This document shows positions 3,000-43,248 of a stretch of DNA of 64,000 bases, piece by piece. The notes beneath the pieces were generated by a model, which saw only the letters and a list, made by a program, of their open reading frames with translations, was not told where the DNA came from and searched no databases. A program made the translations under genes and the position numbers. Origin of the DNA: Candidatus Latescibacterota bacterium (lineage in GTDB: Bacteria; Latescibacterota; UBA2968; UBA8231); assembly GCA_965219385.1 (NCBI GenBank), contig CBDCNM010000001.1:110631-174630 (forward strand), given 5' to 3'. How positions within the stretch are numbered: position 1 is the first letter of the stretch; the number at the start of each line of letters is the position of its first letter.

Positions 3000-3046
3000 A
3001 AGTCCACCTCCTGATGTGAGTAAAAACGGACGGGTTGACAACTTTG

Positions 3047-22992: not shown

Positions 22993-25900
22993 AGGTTCAT
23001 CCCCGCGTGTGCGGGGAACACAGCCTCCGCTTCAACTTCTTCCCATGGGCATACGGTTCATCCCCGCGTGTGCGGGGAACACCTCAACGAGGCCGGCGGC
23101 GAATTCACGCCAGACGGTTCATCCCCGCGTGTGCGGGGAACACCTCAACGAGGCCGGCGGCGAATTCACGCCAGACGGTTCATCCCCGCGTGTGCGGGGA
23201 ACACCTCAACGAGGCCGGCGGCGAATTCACGCCAGACGGTTCATCCCCGCGTGTGCGGGGAACACTGTGCCATCTCGGAATAAAATGAGCTAACTACTGG
23301 TTCATCCCCGCGTGTGCGGGGAACACCCGTCAACGTCTGCCCCGAGGCATTGGCTGTCCGGTTCATCCCCGCGTGTGCGGGGAACACCCTGATTGGATTG
23401 CCTTTGGACCGCCGGCTTTCGGTTCATCCCCGCGTGTGCGGGGAACACAAGACGCCGGCATGACCTGCTTGCCGGGATACCGGTTCATCCCCGCGTGTGC
23501 GGGGAACACAGGACGGCAAGTTGTTCTGAATTCCTGTCTACCGGTTCATCCCCGCGTGTGCGGGGAACACTTCATTGGCTACACATTTTTTGCAATACCC
23601 CTCGGTTCATCCCCGCGTGTGCGGGGAACACACAAAACCCGGGCAGGCGGCTGCCGCCCTCTCCGGTTCATCCCCGCGTGTGCGGGGAACACTGGCGGTC
23701 AGCTACGACGGCCTTGAGATACAACGGTTCATCCCCGCGTGTGCGGGGAACACGCTTCCTGATCGGATTGCCTTTGGACCGCTGACGGTTCATCCCCGCG
23801 TGTGCGGGGAACACGCTTCCTGATCGGATTGCCTTTGGACCGCTGACGGTTCATCCCCGCGTGTGCGGGGAACACGCAGCCGGGGCTGCCCTTTCCAGCC
23901 CCTGCGGTTCATCCCCGCGTGTGCGGGGAACACTGGGCCACCAACGCCTGCGGCTCCAGCCCCTGCGGTTCATCCCCGCGTGTGCGGGGAACACGTGATC
24001 CGCGAAATTGCCGCACGGACCCACGCCGGTTCATCCCCGCGTGTGCGGGGAACACGTGTCCGCATCATCGGCCGTGAGCCCCGTGACCGGTTCATCCCCG
24101 CGTGTGCGGGGAACACACCCCTCGATTTCCAGCCTTGAGCGCGTGCCCCGGTTCATCCCCGCGTGTGCGGGGAACACCTCGTTCCCCGTCGCCTTCTGTG
24201 AATGTTCAACGGTTCATCCCCGCGTGTGCGGGGAACACAGACCCGGGCCGCTTCGCGTTATTCTCGCGGACGGTTCATCCCCGCGTGTGCGGGGAACACG
24301 CCTCTTCTTCATTCCTCTGCTTTTCAGCCACCGGTTCATCCCCGCGTGTGCGGGGAACACCAGGCTGCTCGCTCATTACTCAGTTCCCTCCTCGGTTCAT
24401 CCCCGCGTGTGCGGGGAACACGGCTCGCGCTGCTCGGCGTCCGGAACCTGATCCGGTTCATCCCCGCGTGTGCGGGGAACACTCGATTTCGCTTGCCCTT
24501 TCCAGACCCATACCCGGTTCATCCCCGCGTGTGCGGGGAACACCTTCGGGCTTGACGTAGAGAAGGCTCCCTGGTCGGTTCATCCCCGCGTGTGCGGGGA
24601 ACACACGCACCGCACAGCAGGCGCGCACGAGAAAGCCGGTTCATCCCCGCGTGTGCGGGGAACACCCCTCATCGACCAGGCGGATGACAGTTGAGTGCGG
24701 TTCATCCCCGCGTGTGCGGGGAACACGTTCCTCCGGTGGGGGTGATTGGGATAGGTGCCGGTTCATCCCCGCGTGTGCGGGGAACACACCCAATGACCGC
24801 AACACCGAACAACGGGCAACGGTTCATCCCCGCGTGTGCGGGGAACACTGTACCGAGGTCGCCGGCGTCCCTTCCCTGGCCGGTTCATCCCCGCGTGTGC
24901 GGGGAACACTGTACCGGGCGGTAGGATGGTAGGCCATGCGTCGGTTCATCCCCGCGTGTGCGGGGAACACAACGCAGCGCCGTTGGGATGTCTTCGGGTC
25001 GGCGGTTCATCCCCGCGTGTGCGGGGAACACCGAAGAAAAACCAGGAGCGCGCCGACCGCGTCCGGTTCATCCCCGCGTGTGCGGGGAACACTTGACCCA
25101 AGCGGTTGAGCTTCTCCAGGGCGACGGTTCATCCCCGCGTGTGCGGGGAACACGCCTTGAGGCTGACCCTTTCCGGCCCCAATCCCGGTTCATCCCCGCG
25201 TGTGCGGGGAACACTAATGGAACCCACAATGGAACCCACAACCACTCGGTTCATCCCCGCGTGTGCGGGGAACACTAGGTGGAGAAAATCACCTCCCGGG
25301 TCTCCTGCGGTTCATCCCCGCGTGTGCGGGGAACACATCGCGCGTAGCCAAGGTAAGCCGGGGCACACCGGTTCATCCCCGCGTGTGCGGGGAACACCCG
25401 GCTGACTGTGCCCCTTTTCGGCCTATCCCCGGTTCATCCCCGCGTGTGCGGGGAACACCTGGTCAGCGGCGGCTTTCCGAATTGGATTGCCGGTTCATCC
25501 CCGCGTGTGCGGGGAACACCGCCTGGTCAATCCGTTCTTCATCTCCAAATCCGGTTCATCCCCGCGTGTGCGGGGAACACCCGCATTGAGCACAGTGCCG
25601 TGGTGGTCGTGGCGGTTCATCCCCGCGTGTGCGGGGAACACATTAGAGGGCCGTGCCGAGGAGTCCAACGCCCCGGTTCATCCCCGCGTGTGCGGGGAAC
25701 ACTTGCGTCTCGGGCATCATGGTGGGCGCCTCTACGGTTCATCCCCGCGTGTGCGGGGAACACGCCAACCTGGCACCCACCCTCTTTCCCCGTCGCGGTT
25801 CATCCCCGCGTGTGCGGGGAACACAGCCTAGCCATGCCATGCCCAGCCAGGTGATCCGGTTCATCCCCGCGTGTGCGGGGAACACGTTCTGTGTCACCAG

Positions 25901-27532
25901 CTCGAAGATCCCTTTATCGGTTCATCCCCGCGTGTGCGGGGAACACTCGCCGTGCATCTTCTCGTCCGTGAGCGCATCCGGTTCATCCCCGCGTGTGCGG
26001 GGAACACCTCTCGGATTATTTCTCTCACTGTGAACCCTCCGGTTCATCCCCGCGTGTGCGGGGAACACCCGATTGCCAGAAGGGGAACTCATCAGGAGGG
26101 CGGTTCATCCCCGCGTGTGCGGGGAACACTCCTCCGGGGGCGGATCGCCCTGTTCTGCGGCCGGTTCATCCCCGCGTGTGCGGGGAACACTCTGCCTGGG
26201 TGATTTCCAGTTGAAACTCGACCGGTTCATCCCCGCGTGTGCGGGGAACACATCGGCTGCCCCTGCCCCCCCCGGCTGAACGTCGGTTCATCCCCGCGTG
26301 TGCGGGGAACACCCACCCTGTCGGGGAAGATTCGGTTAAAAGCCCGGTTCATCCCCGCGTGTGCGGGGAACACTTCTTATTAGGCCGCTTTTTGCAAATC
26401 CTCCCCGGTTCATCCCCGCGTGTGCGGGGAACACAAAGGAGATCAAGTATGATGCAGATAGATAAACGGTTCATCCCCGCGTGTGCGGGGAACACCTCGA
26501 TCACATAATCATGGCGGAGCAGGGCAGCGGTTCATCCCCGCGTGTGCGGGGAACACAAGTTAAGCAGTTTTCTCATCGTGGTGCCTTCCGGTTCATCCCC
26601 GCGTGTGCGGGGAACACGTGAGACGCGCGAAGGTGGGCCCGGGCCAGGTCGGTTCATCCCCGCGTGTGCGGGGAACACCTGTCAAACTCGCGATTCCGGT
26701 CGGCCGCCGCCGGTTCATCCCCGCGTGTGCGGGGAACACCGGCATGGAGGGAGATTATGAGCATAGATCACCGGTTCATCCCCGCGTGTGCGGGGAACAC
26801 GGCTCGATCTCGATATAGCCCTGGCTCCCATCCGGTTCATCCCCGCGTGTGCGGGGAACACTTCGTAGCCCCCCTATCATAATTGATCTCCTTCGGTTCA
26901 TCCCCGCGTGTGCGGGGAACACCGGAATGGATGACGGCGCCTTGCTCTCGCCATCGGTTCATCCCCGCGTGTGCGGGGAACACTTTTATCTCGTTATAGG
27001 TCATGATACCCCATTCGGTTCATCCCCGCGTGTGCGGGGAACACATCTTGCTTTCCCGGCAATACCTCTTGTCCGCCGGTTCATCCCCGCGTGTGCGGGG
27101 AACACGTACATGGTTATGCCTCCTATTATGCCGCTGGCGGTTCATCCCCGCGTGTGCGGGGAACACGAAATGGGCAACCTATGGAAAGAGGCTGATGCCG
27201 GTTCATCCCCGCGTGTGCGGGGAACACCCCCGGTACCAGCTACCGCATTGGGGTCGTGGCGGTTCATCCCCGCGTGTGCGGGGAACACAAAGACGGGCAA
27301 AGCACGCCCGCACATATAGACGGTTCATCCCCGCGTGTGCGGGGAACACACAAGGGCCCGCTTCCGGGTCAAGTCCTCCTCCGGTTCATCCCCGCGTGTG
27401 CGGGGAACACACCATACCGGTAAACCTGCACCAGCGGATAATCGGTTCATCCCCGCGTGTGCGGGGAACACATCGGCCCATAAACAAAGACCTCCGACGC
27501 GTTCGGTTCATCCCCGCGTGTGCGGGGAACAC
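22993..27532 (-). CRISPR. type I-E CRISPR array, about 75 repeats (29 nt) and about 74 spacers (29-33 nt, mostly 32 nt)
   Basis: Plus-strand repeat CGGTTCATCCCCGCGTGTGCGGGGAACAC with 61-nt period. Minus-strand form GTGTTCCCCGCACACGCGGGGATGAACCG is a classic I-E repeat. Leader-proximal repeat at 27504-27532. The distal repeat at 22993 has a terminal base change. Confidence 0.97.
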
Positions 27533-31926: not shown

Positions 31927-33683
31927 TAAGCGGCCTCCTTTTGGGTTTTAGGTTTTTTCTTTGGCAAAGGAAGTTCGAGCTTGTCGTAAAGCGTCTTACT
32001 CTGCTTGGTCAGGCCAGCAAAGGTTGCGTTCAGTATGCCGTAGGCATTGACGATGTCCTTGGCCTTCTCGATGTCTTGCAAGGGCACGGGTGCCAGTCGG
32101 TCGAAAGTCGCAAGGGCTGCAAAGCGCATGATCCTTAGCCAGTGCCGTGCAGAAGCGCCCAGGTCGCCCAAGCGACCATCTTCAGGCATTTCTTGGAGCA
32201 AGTCGTCGAGCAGGAGGTGGAATTGGTCCTCGGTTGCGTCGAAGAAATCCGCCCGTGCTTGATCGAGAATCCCCTTATCGTTCGAGGCGTTCTTCTGGCC
32301 GCTGAAAAGTGCCTTTTTCAAGGCTGCTAACAACTGAGAAACTGCTTGATCGGCGGCTTCGGAGAAATGTCGGGCGAGGTCGTCGAGTGCCTGTTGTTGA
32401 TCGGATATCTTCGCCAGATGCAAAGGCTCCTCGGCGATGAGATAGGCGATTGCTTCCATGTTGTTCATAGCCCAACCGCCGACCCGAACGCGGGCATCGG
32501 CCGCCTGTTTATTCTGGCTAAGGGCGTGGGAGCGATTATTCTTGGCGAGCTTGATGTTTGTGGGCTGTTCAGCCAGCTTGCCATCCTTGCTCCCCACCGT
32601 GACGGCAACCCAGTCTCGATAGCCGAAGCGTCCTGATTTCGGCTTGGCCGAATAGAGTTCCCCCGCCTCTTCCTGGCGTCGGTAGGGCGTCAAGGGATGC
32701 TGCCACATCCCATAGTTTGTCCCGTAAGGCTTCTGAATAAATCCGGTGACCGGCGGCCCTTCCCTGTCGGTCATGGAGCAGATGCCCGGCTCGCTGGAAA
32801 AGACCAGTCGAATGCGACGCGGCATACCGAAATACGCCTGCAAGGGGTGGGTGTCTGAGTCGACTTCGGACACAACGCGATTGCTCTCTGAGGTGAGTGT
32901 CGGGGCCAGCCAAGGCAGGACCTTGGACAACTCGTCGCTTTTCAGACGAACATGGTGCCCTACATTGGCGAAAATTTTGCGCCACAAAGGCACGGGCGGC
33001 GCATCGCCATGAGCCGCCGGAATGACCAGCGCGGTCAAAGGTCCGCCCCCGCGCATGGAGGTGCGGTTCCCGGCACCGCCGGACGGCGCGTAGGCTTGCA
33101 GGGCGTACAGCGCCATGGCCGCAGCGGGTAGACCAAGGGCGGCATAGCGGTCGCGGTGAGTCAGCAGGTCCGAGTTCTTGCGCTGGCCGTTTTGCCCAGG
33201 TGTGTCAATGAGCAGCAACTCAATAGGGGTTTCGTCGCCTTGCAAGGACTCGTAGTCCTGCAAGAAGCGCGGCCCTTCGCCGTTGAGATAGAAGGCGGGA
33301 ACAAGAGGGGCGAGCTTTTCGGCGAGCGCGTCTCGATCAGGCGGGCTGCTCCAAAATGGACGCCAGTCGTTGTCCTCGTCGCGGATATCGAAGGCCAGCG
33401 AAATCACGCCGATGCAGAACTCGAAGCTCGCCATGTTGAAATCCGGTCGCGGCCAGTTAAATTCGACCGGGTAGTCTTCATCCAAGCCGTTGCTCTCGGC
33501 CCCGGTCACTAGCTCGGGAAAGGCAAGCCATCTCTGTGCTCCAGATCGCATGACCACTGGGAGGAAGGGATCACTGAGTAGATTGAAAGTCATTGATAAC
33601 TCCTTCAAAATTTGTTTAACCAACAGCTTACTACATAATATAAAGAGGCAATCGTACTTTGTCAAGGGCAAGTTGTGGTCCAT
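31926..33683 (-). CDS. cse1: Cse1 (CasA/Cas8e) large subunit
   Basis: 585 aa in the expected position. ATG at 33683 (MDHNLPLTKYD). Confidence 0.85.
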   Translation of the reverse strand: MDHNLPLTKYDCLFILCSKLLVKQILKELSMTFNLLSDPFLPVVMRSGAQRWLAFPELVTGAESNGLDEDYPVEFNWPRPDFNMASFEFCIGVISLAFDIRDEDNDWRPFWSSPPDRDALAEKLAPLVPAFYLNGEGPRFLQDYESLQGDETPIELLLIDTPGQNGQRKNSDLLTHRDRYAALGLPAAAMALYALQAYAPSGGAGNRTSMRGGGPLTALVIPAAHGDAPPVPLWRKIFANVGHHVRLKSDELSKVLPWLAPTLTSESNRVVSEVDSDTHPLQAYFGMPRRIRLVFSSEPGICSMTDREGPPVTGFIQKPYGTNYGMWQHPLTPYRRQEEAGELYSAKPKSGRFGYRDWVAVTVGSKDGKLAEQPTNIKLAKNNRSHALSQNKQAADARVRVGGWAMNNMEAIAYLIAEEPLHLAKISDQQQALDDLARHFSEAADQAVSQLLAALKKALFSGQKNASNDKGILDQARADFFDATEDQFHLLLDDLLQEMPEDGRLGDLGASARHWLRIMRFAALATFDRLAPVPLQDIEKAKDIVNAYGILNATFAGLTKQSKTLYDKLELPLPKKKPKTQKEAA

Positions 33684-33761
33684 TAATTAATCCCCGTGTG
33701 TACGGGGAACATGTTAGCCGACAGCATACTACGGCTCATTCCCGCGTCTGCGGGACAACAA
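33684..33761 (-). ncRNA. CRISPR-repeat-derived mini-array: degenerate repeat - 19-nt spacer - degenerate repeat (putative crRNA-like regulatory RNA) at the cas3/cse1 junction
   Basis: Minus strand: TTGTCCCGCAGACGCGGGAATGAGCCG - TAGTATGCTGTCGGCTAAC - ATGTTCCCCGTACACACGGGGATTAATTA followed by the cse1 ATG. Both pseudo-repeats keep the Cas6e hairpin through compensatory changes (TCCCGC/GCGGGA, CCCCGT/ACGGGG). The 5' handle reads ATGAGCCG against consensus ATGAACCG. Confidence 0.6.
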
Positions 33762-36528
33762 ATCTAAAGCCCAGCTGGGCACAGTACATAAAATAGCCGT
33801 CATCCTTCTCCCCTTCCAATCGCACTCTACCATCCCCTTCTACCACTGCAATTAATATCTTGCGTTCCCACTCCGGCCAGTCGCTTTTGGCCTGCTCTTG
33901 AAGGCGCTGATCCTCGGGTGGCGGCGAAGCTCCTTGGAGAAAATTCTCCCGTACCCGGATTTCGGACAAGGCCCAAGCCCTGTTGGGATCGTCGTCGGGT
34001 GCCACGCACCAGGGAACAAGACGCTCTTCCTCTATGTGAGCCAAGCGCAACGTGACGGTTGGCTCTCCCAGCCGAGTGCCTATGTCCTCTGTGCCGCTCA
34101 AGTTTGACGGCAGGCTACTATAGCCGTCTTGCAGATTAACGACGTTAAATTGACCCAGCGAGCGTTCGCCGCTTTCTGTTCCCACGTCCTCCCACTGCTT
34201 TTCTTCGAGGGCTGGCGGCACATCTTCATTGGCGTAAACGCACTCAATCAATGGGCGAAAACTTGCCGGCGTGTCAATGCGTCCGGCGTCGAACAGGACC
34301 TTCGCGCTACGCCACATCACGCCGGCACATTGATAGACAAAGGCCGCCTTGTCGAGTACCGGCTCAAGCCAGTCTTTGTCTTCTACCTGATCCGGGTCCG
34401 GCGAGACCACGAGCATACGCGGCCCCTCTACAGGGCGGCTTTCCGGCGGGCGCTTGTCCAAATGCCGCCACATCCGCCCGGCGCGCTGAATGATAAGGTC
34501 CACCGGCGCGAGGTCCGAAATGATGAGATCAAAGTCGAGGTCGAGGCTTTGCTCAACCACCTGCGTGGCCACAAGGATATGGCCGGCCCGGTCCGTCGCT
34601 TTGGCGTCGCGCCCGAATCGGCACAATACATCCTTTTCTATAGCCTGTCGGTCATCTTGGGCAAACCGAGCGTGGAATAGGTGAATGTGATCTGGGTGAT
34701 CCACTTGGCCCGCAAGCGATTCATATACAGCGATGGCCTCATCTACTGCGTTGCAAATGACCAGCACGGCCACTCCCTCTTTTGCTGCGGAGAGTGCCCG
34801 TGTCTCGGCGGTTGTTCGGTCAGGCAGGCGTTCTACCGTTACGTTGCGACGCAAAGCAGAATCGAATCCCGGTTCGCATTCCTGTGCATCGCCGATTGCG
34901 ACCGAGGTGAGCAACGGGTACGCCTCACTGCATAGTTGATCGCTCAGATCGTCTGGATCGCGCAGGCCGAGGCCCTCAGCGAAAGCCTCTGTCATGGCTC
35001 GTCGCTGCTCCAGAGATAAGGTCGCTGAGAGCACTATAGCGGAGCCGCCGTTTTGGGCGTGGAGTTCCAGTAGCGCGGAAAGTTCCTCGCCCATATAGGC
35101 ATCAAAGCAATGGGCTTCATCAACGATGAGGATGCGGCCTGCAAGCCCGTATTGACGCAAGGTTAGATGTCTTTTGGGCAGGACGGAGAGAAAGGCTTGG
35201 TCGATGGTCCCCGCTCCGACATCTGCGTAAAAGGCTTTTCGTCGGTCGTCCGCGATCCATTCAGCGCAAAAGGCGGATGCGGTAGCTTCGTCATCGCTGC
35301 CGTTGTCCATGGCTGCGCGGTTAATGATGGCGCGGAATGCCTCGGACAGGTTCGACTGGCCATGGGCCAGGACCAGTGAAGGGGTGGCCACTGGGGCAAA
35401 CAGGGCCTTGTAGGTCTCCGCCAGCCGCTCGTACATGGCGTTGGCCGTCGCCATGGTCGGCAGCGCAAAGTACAGGCCCTCGCCCTTGCCCGCGGCCATC
35501 ATCCGTGCAGCGAGCATGATGGCCGCCTCTGTCTTGCCAGCACCTGTGGTGTCTTCTATGATGAACAACTGCGCTCCGTCTGTGAGCGGCGCTTCTTCCG
35601 CCAGCTTCTGCATGGGTCTTGGGCGGGCGGCAGCTCGCGGCGCGAAACAAGCATAATTCGGACGGGACTCCGAGGTCTGAGGCAGCAGCCCCTTGCCCAA
35701 TAGGGCTTTTTCGGCCTGAGCAAGCGCCCAGTCCCAATAGTCCTCCAGCCGCGTATTGACCGGTTCAAAGGGGAAGTGACAGGTGTCGGAGCCGATCCAG
35801 TCGGCTAGCGTGACAAGCCCTGACAAGCGCCAAGACCACTGCGCCGCCTGCTTCTGCTTTTTGAGAGAAGACAGCGGCGAAGGGTTTATCAGGTTCCGGA
35901 GAATACAAAAGGCATCACGAGCCGCATCCACGCATTCCGCACCAATCTGCCGGTCGCGTTGAGCCTTGCCTGGATCGGCGTTTACTTCATCCTGTCCTTC
36001 AGGCGGTCGTCCATGGTGCCCCGCAATGGCAGCAATGATCGGTGCTATATAATCAGAATAAGGAATGCTGGGGAACAGGCTGATGAATTCTTTGGCAATT
36101 GGCTCGGCCCGGAGGAGAATCCCCGTGTTGCGCCAGTGGCCGCGATCGGCTTCCTCCCCTCTCAAGCCGAGCACCTGCGCCGGCCACAATGCGGGCACTT
36201 TGGCCTGAAAGCCGCGTGAAAATTTGCCGAGATCGTGTATGCCAGCCAAGAAAGCGGTGGTTCTGGACAAGCTTTCTGGATCCGCGTTCAGCAAAGCGGC
36301 CTCGCGCTTGAGACGGGAAGGATTCAATTGCTGCCATCGCAGGGCGACTGCGGCGACATCCATTAAATGATGCAATACGGGCTTGTAGCCACCTTGCCCT
36401 TCGGTATCACTTCGTACATTTTCCGAAGAATCCCCAGAACCACGCGGCGTCTTGCCCCAGAATGCTAGGATGTGAGCGGCTTCCATATGTGCATTTGGAA
36501 AGATAAAGGTAGTTATCGGGCCAAGCAA
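33736..36528 (-). CDS. cas3: Cas3 HD nuclease/helicase
   Basis: HD motifs (HLMDVAAVA, IHDLGKF), helicase Walker A DTTGAGKTEAA, DEAH box LIVDEAHCFD. ATG alternative start at 36486; the track start at 36528 is TTG. The 3' end encodes the first pseudo-repeat. Confidence 0.93.
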   Translation of the reverse strand: MLGPITTFIFPNAHMEAAHILAFWGKTPRGSGDSSENVRSDTEGQGGYKPVLHHLMDVAAVALRWQQLNPSRLKREAALLNADPESLSRTTAFLAGIHDLGKFSRGFQAKVPALWPAQVLGLRGEEADRGHWRNTGILLRAEPIAKEFISLFPSIPYSDYIAPIIAAIAGHHGRPPEGQDEVNADPGKAQRDRQIGAECVDAARDAFCILRNLINPSPLSSLKKQKQAAQWSWRLSGLVTLADWIGSDTCHFPFEPVNTRLEDYWDWALAQAEKALLGKGLLPQTSESRPNYACFAPRAAARPRPMQKLAEEAPLTDGAQLFIIEDTTGAGKTEAAIMLAARMMAAGKGEGLYFALPTMATANAMYERLAETYKALFAPVATPSLVLAHGQSNLSEAFRAIINRAAMDNGSDDEATASAFCAEWIADDRRKAFYADVGAGTIDQAFLSVLPKRHLTLRQYGLAGRILIVDEAHCFDAYMGEELSALLELHAQNGGSAIVLSATLSLEQRRAMTEAFAEGLGLRDPDDLSDQLCSEAYPLLTSVAIGDAQECEPGFDSALRRNVTVERLPDRTTAETRALSAAKEGVAVLVICNAVDEAIAVYESLAGQVDHPDHIHLFHARFAQDDRQAIEKDVLCRFGRDAKATDRAGHILVATQVVEQSLDLDFDLIISDLAPVDLIIQRAGRMWRHLDKRPPESRPVEGPRMLVVSPDPDQVEDKDWLEPVLDKAAFVYQCAGVMWRSAKVLFDAGRIDTPASFRPLIECVYANEDVPPALEEKQWEDVGTESGERSLGQFNVVNLQDGYSSLPSNLSGTEDIGTRLGEPTVTLRLAHIEEERLVPWCVAPDDDPNRAWALSEIRVRENFLQGASPPPEDQRLQEQAKSDWPEWERKILIAVVEGDGRVRLEGEKDDGYFMYCAQLGFRFVVPQTRE

Positions 36529-42304: not shown

Positions 42305-43248
42305 ATCCCCTCCCGCCCTTGAGAGGCTGTCTGAAAACTATATTTTTCATTTGATCCGTTTGAGTAGCAAGTGGATCATGGCAATCTGAATCAAGGCCTC
42401 GCTATGGCGGGTCAACACCTCATAATCTCGGGCATGACGGCGAAAATTCATCAACCACGCCAAGGTGCGCTCGACGACCCAACGGCGTTTGAGTATGGTA
42501 AACCCGGAGCCTTGTTGAGCGACGACTTCCAAGTCTATCTTGTGCGTCTTTTTTACGTTGGCCACCCACGTTCGGATCGGATCGCCTCGATAGCCGCCAT
42601 CGACCCACAGTTTGCGTAACCGGGGTACGCCGAGGGCACTATAGCGGGTCAACACCGGCTTCAAGCCGTCCCGATCCTCTACATCGGCGGCGGTGACCAC
42701 CACCTGTCTAAGCAAGCCCAAGGTGTCGACCCACAGATGACGCTTGCGTCCTTGGATCTTTTTGCCAGCGTCATAACCAGTTGTTTTACCATGGGTTGCC
42801 GTCTTGATCGTCTGCCTATCGACACCGCCAGCCGACGGCGTCGGAGCCCGTCCGTTCAGGCGGCGTTCCCGCTGGGTGAGTCGATCCAATACCTGCGGCC
42901 AGCCCCCTTGGAGACTCCAGCGACGAAAGTAATCATACACTGTTTTCCACGGCCCCAAACAAGAAGGCAACAGCGCCCAAGGACAACCGGTCTTGGTCCG
43001 ATATAAAAGGCCGTTGACGATCTGGCGTCGATCCCGCGGTGGCCGACCCGGACCGTTGGGTTGCCAAGTCGAAGCCGGCAGCAAGGTTCGATCCGCCGCC
43101 ATTGCGCATCGGTTACATCGGTGGCATATTGGCCACTAGGCGTACTCATCATAAGAGCCTTTCTGTGCAGATTTTGTGGTGAAACCTGAATATGGCCCGA
43201 TGAATACGCCGATTCAAATACGGGCTACATCAAGGGTTTTCAGACAGC
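42305..43248 (-). mobile_element. IS5-family insertion sequence (IS1031-like: 3-bp TGA target duplication), diverged from the 55.8-kb copy
   Basis: Inverted repeats GAGGCTGTCTGAAAAC / GTTTTCAGACAGCCTC flanked by TGA on both sides. Internal DDE transposase reading frames. Confidence 0.8.
42347..43152 (-). CDS. IS5 family transposase (DUF4096 N-domain + DDE_Tnp_1), two frames joined by frameshift
   Basis: MMSTPSGQYATDVTDAQWRRIEP... (frame a, 42856-43152) continues as ...IVNGLLYRTKTGCPWALLP...WVDGGYRG...IAMIHLLLKRIK (frame b, 42347-43102). Confidence 0.8.

Follow-up and report, generated by a model that had tools for sequence, protein, structure and literature searches.

A candidate CreR-type autoregulatory mini-CRISPR at the cas3–cse1 junction of a type I-E locus

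The type I-E locus and its cas3–cse1 junction

The window analysed here, the whole stretch of 64 kb of DNA, contains a type I-E gene set that is complete by family profiles and lies on the minus strand (cas2, cas1, cas6e, cas5, cas7, cse2, cse1, and cas3). The cas3 reading frame, encoding HD nuclease and helicase, spans 33736..36528 in the ORF list and matches the NCBIfam Cas3 HD and core domains; the gene likely starts at ATG 36486. [quoted passage not shown] A CRISPR array of 75 repeats (GTGTTCCCCGCACACGCGGGGATGAACCG) and 74 spacers occupies 22993..27532 on the same strand. Spacer length is 32 nt in 73 of the 74 cases and 29 nt in one. Spacers 61 and 62 are identical, as are spacers 71, 72, and 73 (numbered from the cas2 side); the trailer repeat has a final T in place of G, and the first array repeat follows the cas2 stop codon after only 50 nt. 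An IS4/IS5-family DDE transposase is encoded at 42347-43102 (minus strand), ~6 kb upstream of cas3, and the RraA-like, PhyH, MFS, and FAA-hydrolase genes lying between the two are on the cas3 strand. The nearest relatives of Cse1 (75–88% identity) are found in MAGs labelled Candidatus Latescibacterota and in one Gemmatimonadota bin. In an Rfam scan of the entire 64-kb window, nothing reached the gathering thresholds.

Beyond the array, a search of both strands of the 64 kb, allowing up to 10 mismatches to the repeat, identifies exactly two repeat-like copies, both on the minus strand at the cas3–cse1 junction. The first, PsiR1 (33760-33732; TGTTGTCCCGCAGACGCGGGAATGAGCCG), is a degenerate I-E repeat with 8/29 mismatches to GTGTTCCCCGCACACGCGGGGATGAACCG, and the second, PsiR2 (33712-33684; ATGTTCCCCGTACACACGGGGATTAATTA), has 7/29 mismatches to the array repeat. 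Between them sits a 19-nt pseudo-spacer, PsiS (33731-33713; TAGTATGCTGTCGGCTAAC). The unit of pseudo-repeat, 19-nt spacer, and pseudo-repeat described in the initial annotation of this DNA is therefore upheld, as is the statement that the 3′ end of cas3 encodes a degenerate repeat, given that the cas3 stop codon TGA (33738-33736) falls within PsiR1. The unit does not qualify as a canonical immune array, with degenerate repeats, a spacer of 19 nt rather than 32 nt, and a match to the host's own promoter.

PsiR1 contains a 6-bp hairpin (UCCCGC-AGAC-GCGGGA) followed by an 8-nt 5′ handle, AUGAGCCG, at 33739-33732. The handle departs from the canonical AUGAACCG at 1/8 positions, as against 7/21 for the other PsiR1 positions, so that its proposed retention holds with a single mismatch. 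In PsiR2 it is the 3′ hairpin handle, formed by the first 21 nt (AUGUUCCCCGUACACACGGGG, 33712-33692), that is kept, with 3/21 mismatches, while the final 8 nt (AUUAAUUA) have decayed to 4/8. This asymmetric decay is seen in 16 loci, and is expected if the mini-array makes one functional crRNA; the same signature has been described for CreA and CreR (Liu et al., bioRxiv 10.1101/2023.03.10.532045). PsiR1, PsiR2, and the canonical repeat are all predicted to form the repeat hairpin, with folding energies of −11.0, −11.9, and −14.4 kcal/mol, respectively. A compensatory change from C-G to U-A is found at the base of the PsiR1 stem, and another at the innermost, loop-closing pair of PsiR2, in agreement with the earlier claim that the hairpins are kept by compensatory substitutions.

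In the known Cas6e cleavage register, the predicted mature CreR RNA would span 33692..33739 on the minus strand and comprise 48 nt (8-nt handle, 19-nt guide, and 21-nt hairpin). With PsiR1 set in register to the canonical repeat, the Cas6e cut is predicted between 33740 and 33739. PsiR1 differs at this site, having U-A rather than C-G as the basal stem pair and A rather than G before the scissile bond, and its cleavage by Cas6e is assumed. Handle and PsiS together form a small internal hairpin (33706-33742, minus strand; GCCGUAGU / GCU-GUCGGC) in the predicted MFE structure of the junction transcript; this hairpin could be a competitor of Cascade loading or incidental.

The cse1 gene starts at ATG 33593, not at the in-frame ATG 33683. 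A Shine-Dalgarno (SD) sequence, GAAGGAG (33606-33600), is located 6 nt upstream of ATG 33593, the 555-aa version aligns with the Cse1 family profile from its residue 4 onward, and an identical 555-aa Cse1 is present in the public protein collection (P0001). The stretch from PsiR2 to this ATG varies in length by 1, 4, and 11 nt among orthologues, which argues that it is non-coding. The initial annotation had relied on ATG 33683, and had accordingly placed the second pseudo-repeat directly before the start codon and given the cas3–cse1 spacer region as 52 bp; both statements are wrong. With the start at 33593, the intergenic region measures 142 bp, 90 nt separate PsiR2 from the start codon, and the second hairpin is far from the ribosome binding site (RBS). 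For annotation purposes, cse1 should not be extended to the upstream ATG.

A pseudo-spacer match in the predicted cse1 promoter

Within the PsiR2–cse1 interval lies a predicted sigma-70 promoter of the Cascade operon (Pcse1; 33637..33665, minus strand), formed by TTGACA (33665-33660), a 17-nt spacing, and TATATT (33642-33637), with 11/12 consensus positions. The −35 element is invariant in six aligned orthologues, and the −10 region is variable and includes indels. A second minus-strand promoter for the mini-array was searched for inside cas3, and a minus-strand terminator between cas3 and cse1; neither was detected.

PsiS was searched against the 64-kb window with every sixth position left unpaired, as in type I-E pairing. 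The best non-self match within the 64 kb is located at 33633-33615 (minus strand), ~78–80 nt downstream of PsiS. This putative protospacer, TAGTAAGCTGTTGGTTAAA, matches PsiS at 15/19 positions (1–5, 7–11, 13–14, and 16–18), spans the expected transcription start, and is flanked by the PAM ATG (33634..33636), which immediately follows the −10 hexamer. All 12 pairing-competent positions within 1–14 match, and the mismatched positions 6 and 12 are those flipped out by Cascade. In the E. coli type I-E system, the two consensus PAMs for interference are ATG and AAG (PMC6568314). Because the PAM begins right after the −10 hexamer, Cascade bound at this site would lie over the point where transcription of its own operon is expected to start.

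The combination ATG+TAGTANGCTGTNGG occurs once in the window, against 0.00 occurrences expected from 100 shuffles, and 33633-33615 is the sole seed match with a usable PAM in the 64-kb window. Two other PsiS seed matches in the window have the non-PAMs CCG and GTA, and extended pairing is absent from both. A partial target next to an AAG- or ATG-type PAM, which the initial annotation had suggested looking for, is thus present within the 64 kb, in the cse1 promoter itself. Phage mimics of this guide were sought in an IMG/VR scan for handle plus seed (ATGARCCRTAGTRNGCYGT); its 11 matches lack flanking repeat hairpins and are ascribed to chance.

Related loci were collected via Cse1, from genomes, from metagenomes, and through homologues and their contigs. 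The close family comprises 12 loci (the window, L001–L004, L006, L021, L027, L048, L050, L051, and L054), with Cse1 proteins 79–88% identical. Mini-array, promoter, ATG PAM, and target are present in all 12. At seed positions 3 (G/T) and 5 (A/G), variation is seen on the PsiS side as well as on the target side, and the two sides agree in 12/12 loci. At position 9 (T/C), PsiS and target agree in 10/12 loci, the exceptions (L001 and L048) being would-be rU:dG wobbles. Position 6 has three alleles on either side, and PsiS equals the target in 1/12 loci only. When the targets were permuted among the 12 loci, the observed match count was reached in 0/20000 shuffles, a figure that overstates independence as the loci are related. 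The same base changes at paired positions of sites 78–165 nt apart are otherwise hard to explain. Compensated seed changes together with free drift at every sixth position would be the evolutionary footprint of the Cascade pairing rule, and make this locus an unusually clean comparative case for the CreR mechanism. One further relative (L005), in which PsiR1 is kept and PsiR2 is weak, was omitted from the covariation table; a convincing target was sought there by eye and none was seen.

Conservation of the element follows the same lines. Among the nine loci with a fused PsiR1 that were compared, mean pairwise identity is 92% for the 77-nt mini-array and 74% for other intergenic DNA, as against 83% for the last 300 nt of cas3 and 87% for the first 300 nt of cse1. 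Over 25 pseudo-repeats from the window and related loci, 93.7% of stem cells are paired. Two-sided stem changes account for 11 cells, a number reached by 0/500 shuffles, and 9/10 one-sided changes yield G-U pairs. The conservation and covariation of the pseudo-repeats that had been anticipated for orthologues were therefore found. The mini-array is well conserved and, on this comparison, is under selection, as initially argued against random decay; conservation above that of the flanks is here joined by covariation of both the stems and the guide–target pair. Natural losses are also seen: one relative (L049) is without a mini-array and has a 37-nt junction, and another (L009) retains PsiR1 alone, as the end of cas3.

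Unrelated PsiS sequences are found in at least six further loci (L011, L019, L022, L030, L033, L052, and L053). In each of them a target specific to that locus, flanked by AAG or ATG, lies a short distance downstream on the same strand, again mismatched at position 6. Mini-arrays are also present in L012, L015, and L016, where no convincing target was found in the locus DNA examined.

Proposed circuit, rival readings, and known systems

We consider it probable (roughly 85%), on the basis of these sequence comparisons, that the element is a CreR-type autoregulatory mini-CRISPR of type I-E that represses the Cascade promoter. Its anatomy fits the CreR circuit in every testable respect. The mini-array would be read from the minus strand and would most likely form the 3′ end of the cas3 transcript, from which the CreR RNA is probably excised, given that neither a promoter of its own nor a cas3–cse1 terminator was detected. 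Cas6e would cut at the base of both pseudo-repeat hairpins, releasing the 48-nt crRNA-like RNA, and this RNA would assemble a shortened Cascade. The complex would read the ATG PAM abutting the −10 box and pair at positions 1–14 (with 6 and 12 flipped out) and 16–18. Positioned on the transcription start, it would repress cse1-cse2-cas7-cas5-cas6e (and cas1-cas2). With a 19-nt guide and at most 15 paired positions, the R-loop would be too short for Cas3, and the chromosome would be bound and left uncut. The outcome would be negative feedback, in which a drop in free Cascade lifts repression, whether the 74 array crRNAs draw off Cas proteins or an anti-CRISPR disables the complex.

The sequence comparisons establish the anatomy, the PAM-flanked promoter target, its conservation, and the covariation; from these we infer expression, processing, binding, repression, and feedback of CreR at this locus, the last by analogy with the Salmonella I-E CreR. 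Binding without Cas3 cleavage or priming would be expected from comparison of the 15/19 match with E. coli thresholds: in the E. coli I-E system a 5-bp seed plus a PAM suffices for binding, whereas interference and priming need >18 bp (PMC5904413), and interference requires spacers >20 nt (PMC5159557). Counting against the CreR reading, 14-nt spacers were still able to prime adaptation in the work of Kuznedelov et al., which raises the prospect of self-priming. In work cited in PMC5904413, PAM-distal mismatches are reported to weaken promoter occlusion by Cascade sharply; repression by a complex with at most 15 paired positions could be modest.

One rival reading takes the element for a functionless relic, left either by the decay of an earlier CRISPR array at its end or by a spacer acquisition that failed. 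Degenerate terminal repeats are common, the forms with an extra 32-nt spacer and repeat (L006 and L051) show an array origin, and the element has been lost from some relatives (entirely in L049, and down to PsiR1 alone in L009). Simple decay is nevertheless hard to reconcile with a mini-array better conserved than the flanking coding DNA, with a decay pattern that preserves exactly one crRNA and hairpins that covary, or with the covariation at seed positions between PsiS and a PAM-flanked promoter site. We therefore regard a relic as highly improbable. The hairpins might instead act solely as Cas6e binding or processing sites that uncouple the cas3 mRNA and occlude the cse1 RBS, with no DNA targeting. 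Both hairpins are intact, and transcripts running on from cas3 into cse1, where no terminator was detected, would be cut at them. However, the cse1 SD and start lie ~80–91 nt downstream of hairpin 2, with a strong predicted promoter in between, so that most cse1 mRNA would lack the hairpin. This explanation, which leaves PsiS conservation and the covarying promoter match unaccounted for, has scarcely any probability in our judgment. The Cas6e-site model had been put forward in the initial annotation, and its RBS-occlusion component is rejected with the corrected start codon, as the SD and ATG 33593 lie beyond a separate predicted promoter.

A third possibility is that the RNA is the CreA antitoxin of a CreTA addiction module, whose main target would be a toxin promoter elsewhere, cas repression being secondary. 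CreA of H. hispanica represses creT and cas alike, and four distant relatives (L012, L033, L030, and L022) carry an SD and rare-codon mini-ORFs (with ATA ATA, AGA AGA, or TTA TTA TTA) that are described below. In the window, though, the 90 nt from PsiR2 to the cse1 ATG are filled by promoter, target, and a ~35-nt leader, leaving no room for a toxin, and a second seed-plus-PAM site is absent from the 64 kb. The targeted promoter drives cse1 directly, and CreT-like mini-ORFs are confined to the distant alphaproteobacterial loci, which together make an addiction module here very unlikely. Two roles for a truncated guide had originally been envisaged, CreA-like autoregulation and toxin repression; a crRNA-like guide of this sort gains strong support from the PAM-flanked site in the cse1 promoter and its covariation with PsiS, and toxin repression does not, as the targeted promoter drives cse1.

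The favored CreR-type reading places the element among systems already known. The CreR study of Liu et al. reportedly appeared later in Cell Host & Microbe. That study named CreR and demonstrated it for types I-B, I-E, and V-A (bioRxiv 10.1101/2023.03.10.532045). In Salmonella, the I-E CreR lies upstream of casA and represses PcasA 8.6-fold via E. coli Cascade; over-expressed crRNA relieves this repression, as does AcrIE8 (same preprint). The element described here resembles that of Salmonella enterica in subtype, in its comparable position upstream of casA/cse1, in its PsiR-PsiS-PsiR organization, where PsiR1 retains the handle and PsiR2 the hairpin, in the absence of a toxin gene, and in the match of PAM-proximal PsiS to the promoter region of the first Cascade gene. 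PsiS begins with TAG in both. In contrast to the AAG of Salmonella, the PAM here is ATG, and the target, adjoining the −10 box, precedes the start codon by ~40 nt, where the Salmonella target precedes casA by ~140 bp. The match is 15/19, broken at positions 6, 12, and 15, where that of Salmonella CreR is 15 consecutive nucleotides. A further difference is that PsiR1 here overlaps the cas3 frame and stop codon, and the host belongs to an uncultured lineage.

Mini-arrays have been surveyed by Shmakov et al. 2023 (PMC10120712), who find about 19% of the bacterial I-E loci to carry one, as a rule between cas3 and cas8; the predicted targets lie in the cas8 promoter and have canonical PAMs, and mismatches recur at every sixth position. 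The present element shares with the I-E/I-F1 mini-arrays of that survey its location, a promoter target with a canonical PAM, a shortened spacer, and sixth-position mismatches. In the E. coli example of Shmakov et al., transcription was inferred to run opposite to cas3, whereas the orientation of handle and seed here corresponds to the cas3 strand. As in CreTA of the Haloarcula hispanica I-B system, a degenerate mini-CRISPR would guide Cascade to a partly matching promoter, with no cleavage; unlike in CreTA, the window contains no toxin gene and the repressed transcript would be the Cascade operon itself. There is also a likeness to tracr-L of Streptococcus pyogenes, which represses the cas9 operon (Workman et al. 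2021, as cited by Liu et al.): a natural guide with a short match makes the effector repress its own promoter, although the system is of class 2 and the guide is a tracrRNA isoform, with no repeat-spacer-repeat unit. A later preprint shows that phages copy CreR-type RNAs. The suggestion in the initial annotation that the junction holds an undescribed regulatory layer for type I-E systems is thus wrong, CreR and mini-arrays having already been published. The kind of element is described, and this is a further CreR example with the target identified at the cse1 promoter. With it, CreR-type self-regulation of CRISPR-Cas would reach an uncultured lineage that has Latescibacterota MAGs as its closest relatives.

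Fusion of PsiR1 to cas3 and forms of the element in other loci

The tail of cas3, GTT GTC CCG CAG ACG CGG GAA TGA (VVPQTRE and stop), is itself PsiR1, the stop codon lying within the 5′ handle (A-UGA-GCCG). Independent gene calls in L048, L050, and L054 end cas3 at the same TGA inside the handle. The fused arrangement is found in 11 loci (the window, L001–L005, L009, L021, L048, L050, and L054). In unfused relatives (L006, L007, and L027), Cas3 ends earlier and differently and a small ORF lies in between, so that the fusion looks to have arisen by a deletion joining cas3 to the repeat. In the tails of fused loci, substitutions are located in the loop and exchange amino acids (Q to H and T to A), and the stem remains paired, a single C to U change producing G-U. 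That loop substitutions alter the peptide while the stem stays paired points to selection on RNA, not on the peptide.

The predicted Cas6e cut, GCGGGA^AUGAGCCG, splits the final GAA codon (GA^A), so that cleavage would leave a non-stop cas3 mRNA. One may speculate, with the odds against it, that CreR biogenesis is physically coupled to destruction of cas3 mRNA. Were this the case, each CreR produced would cost one translatable cas3 mRNA, with Cas6e staying on its 3′ hairpin, and non-stop rescue by tmRNA would tag nascent Cas3 for degradation. Cas3 would then be tuned down post-transcriptionally alongside transcriptional repression of Cascade, a new arm on a known circuit, and the supply of CreR would also depend on the cas3 promoter. 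The survey of Shmakov et al. (PMC10120712) kept only repeat-like hits without ORF overlap; cas3-fused mini-arrays would therefore have been missed, and are probably under-counted.

Several further forms were observed in other loci. The ORF between cas3 and the mini-array is conserved, encodes ~75–80 aa, and is located at ~2459-2685 in L006, ~2487-2730 in L027, ~2615-2845 in L007, and ~884-1130 in L051. Its product contains MNGRRISNELVGILAVGAALAGL..., followed by coiled-coil-like repeats, the frame being apparently interrupted in L051. This ORF occurs where PsiR1 is unfused to cas3, and is missing from the window. In L006 (2763-2901) and L051 (1184-1322), the unit continues beyond the 19-nt pseudo-spacer and its second repeat with a spacer of the usual 32 nt and a third repeat. 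Such three-repeat forms are intermediates between a small array and a two-repeat CreR.

A common mini-array with a conserved 32-nt pseudo-spacer (CAGGCRATCTAMCGKTTGCGCGG...) is found in a pair of loci from Shinella (L015 2725-2815) and Rhizobium (L016 2728-2818); no convincing target for this shared pseudo-spacer was found within 7.6 kb of the locus. On a TARA metagenome contig (L052 780-1475), the mini-array has an AAG-flanked target at a TTGACA/TATAGA promoter, and a 147-aa ORF without a family match lies between the targeted promoter and cse1. This ORF may be a cargo gene under CreR control. L053 (1400-1500) combines PsiR1 and a ~20-nt pseudo-spacer (TCGTGGGCCATC...) followed directly by ATG + TCGTGAGCCATC. 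Its target overlaps the −35 region of a TATAAT promoter, and a recognisable second hairpin is absent.

Downstream of the mini-array's target promoter, the alphaproteobacterial relatives L012, L033, L030, and L022 carry a strong SD and then a mini-ORF containing rare codons in tandem. Counted from the cse1 ATG (locus position 3001), these mini-ORFs lie at ~−236 to −201 in L012 and L033, ~−102 to −88 in L030, and ~−112 to −86 in L022. The sequences are ATG GCT ATC ATA ATA..., ATG CTC AGA AGA TGA, and ATG GCC CAA TTA TTA TTA. They look like CreT-type toxins that sequester tRNA, and the loci would accordingly hold CreTA modules in a type I-E context. In L011, a 35-aa hydrophobic peptide and a terminator are found instead.
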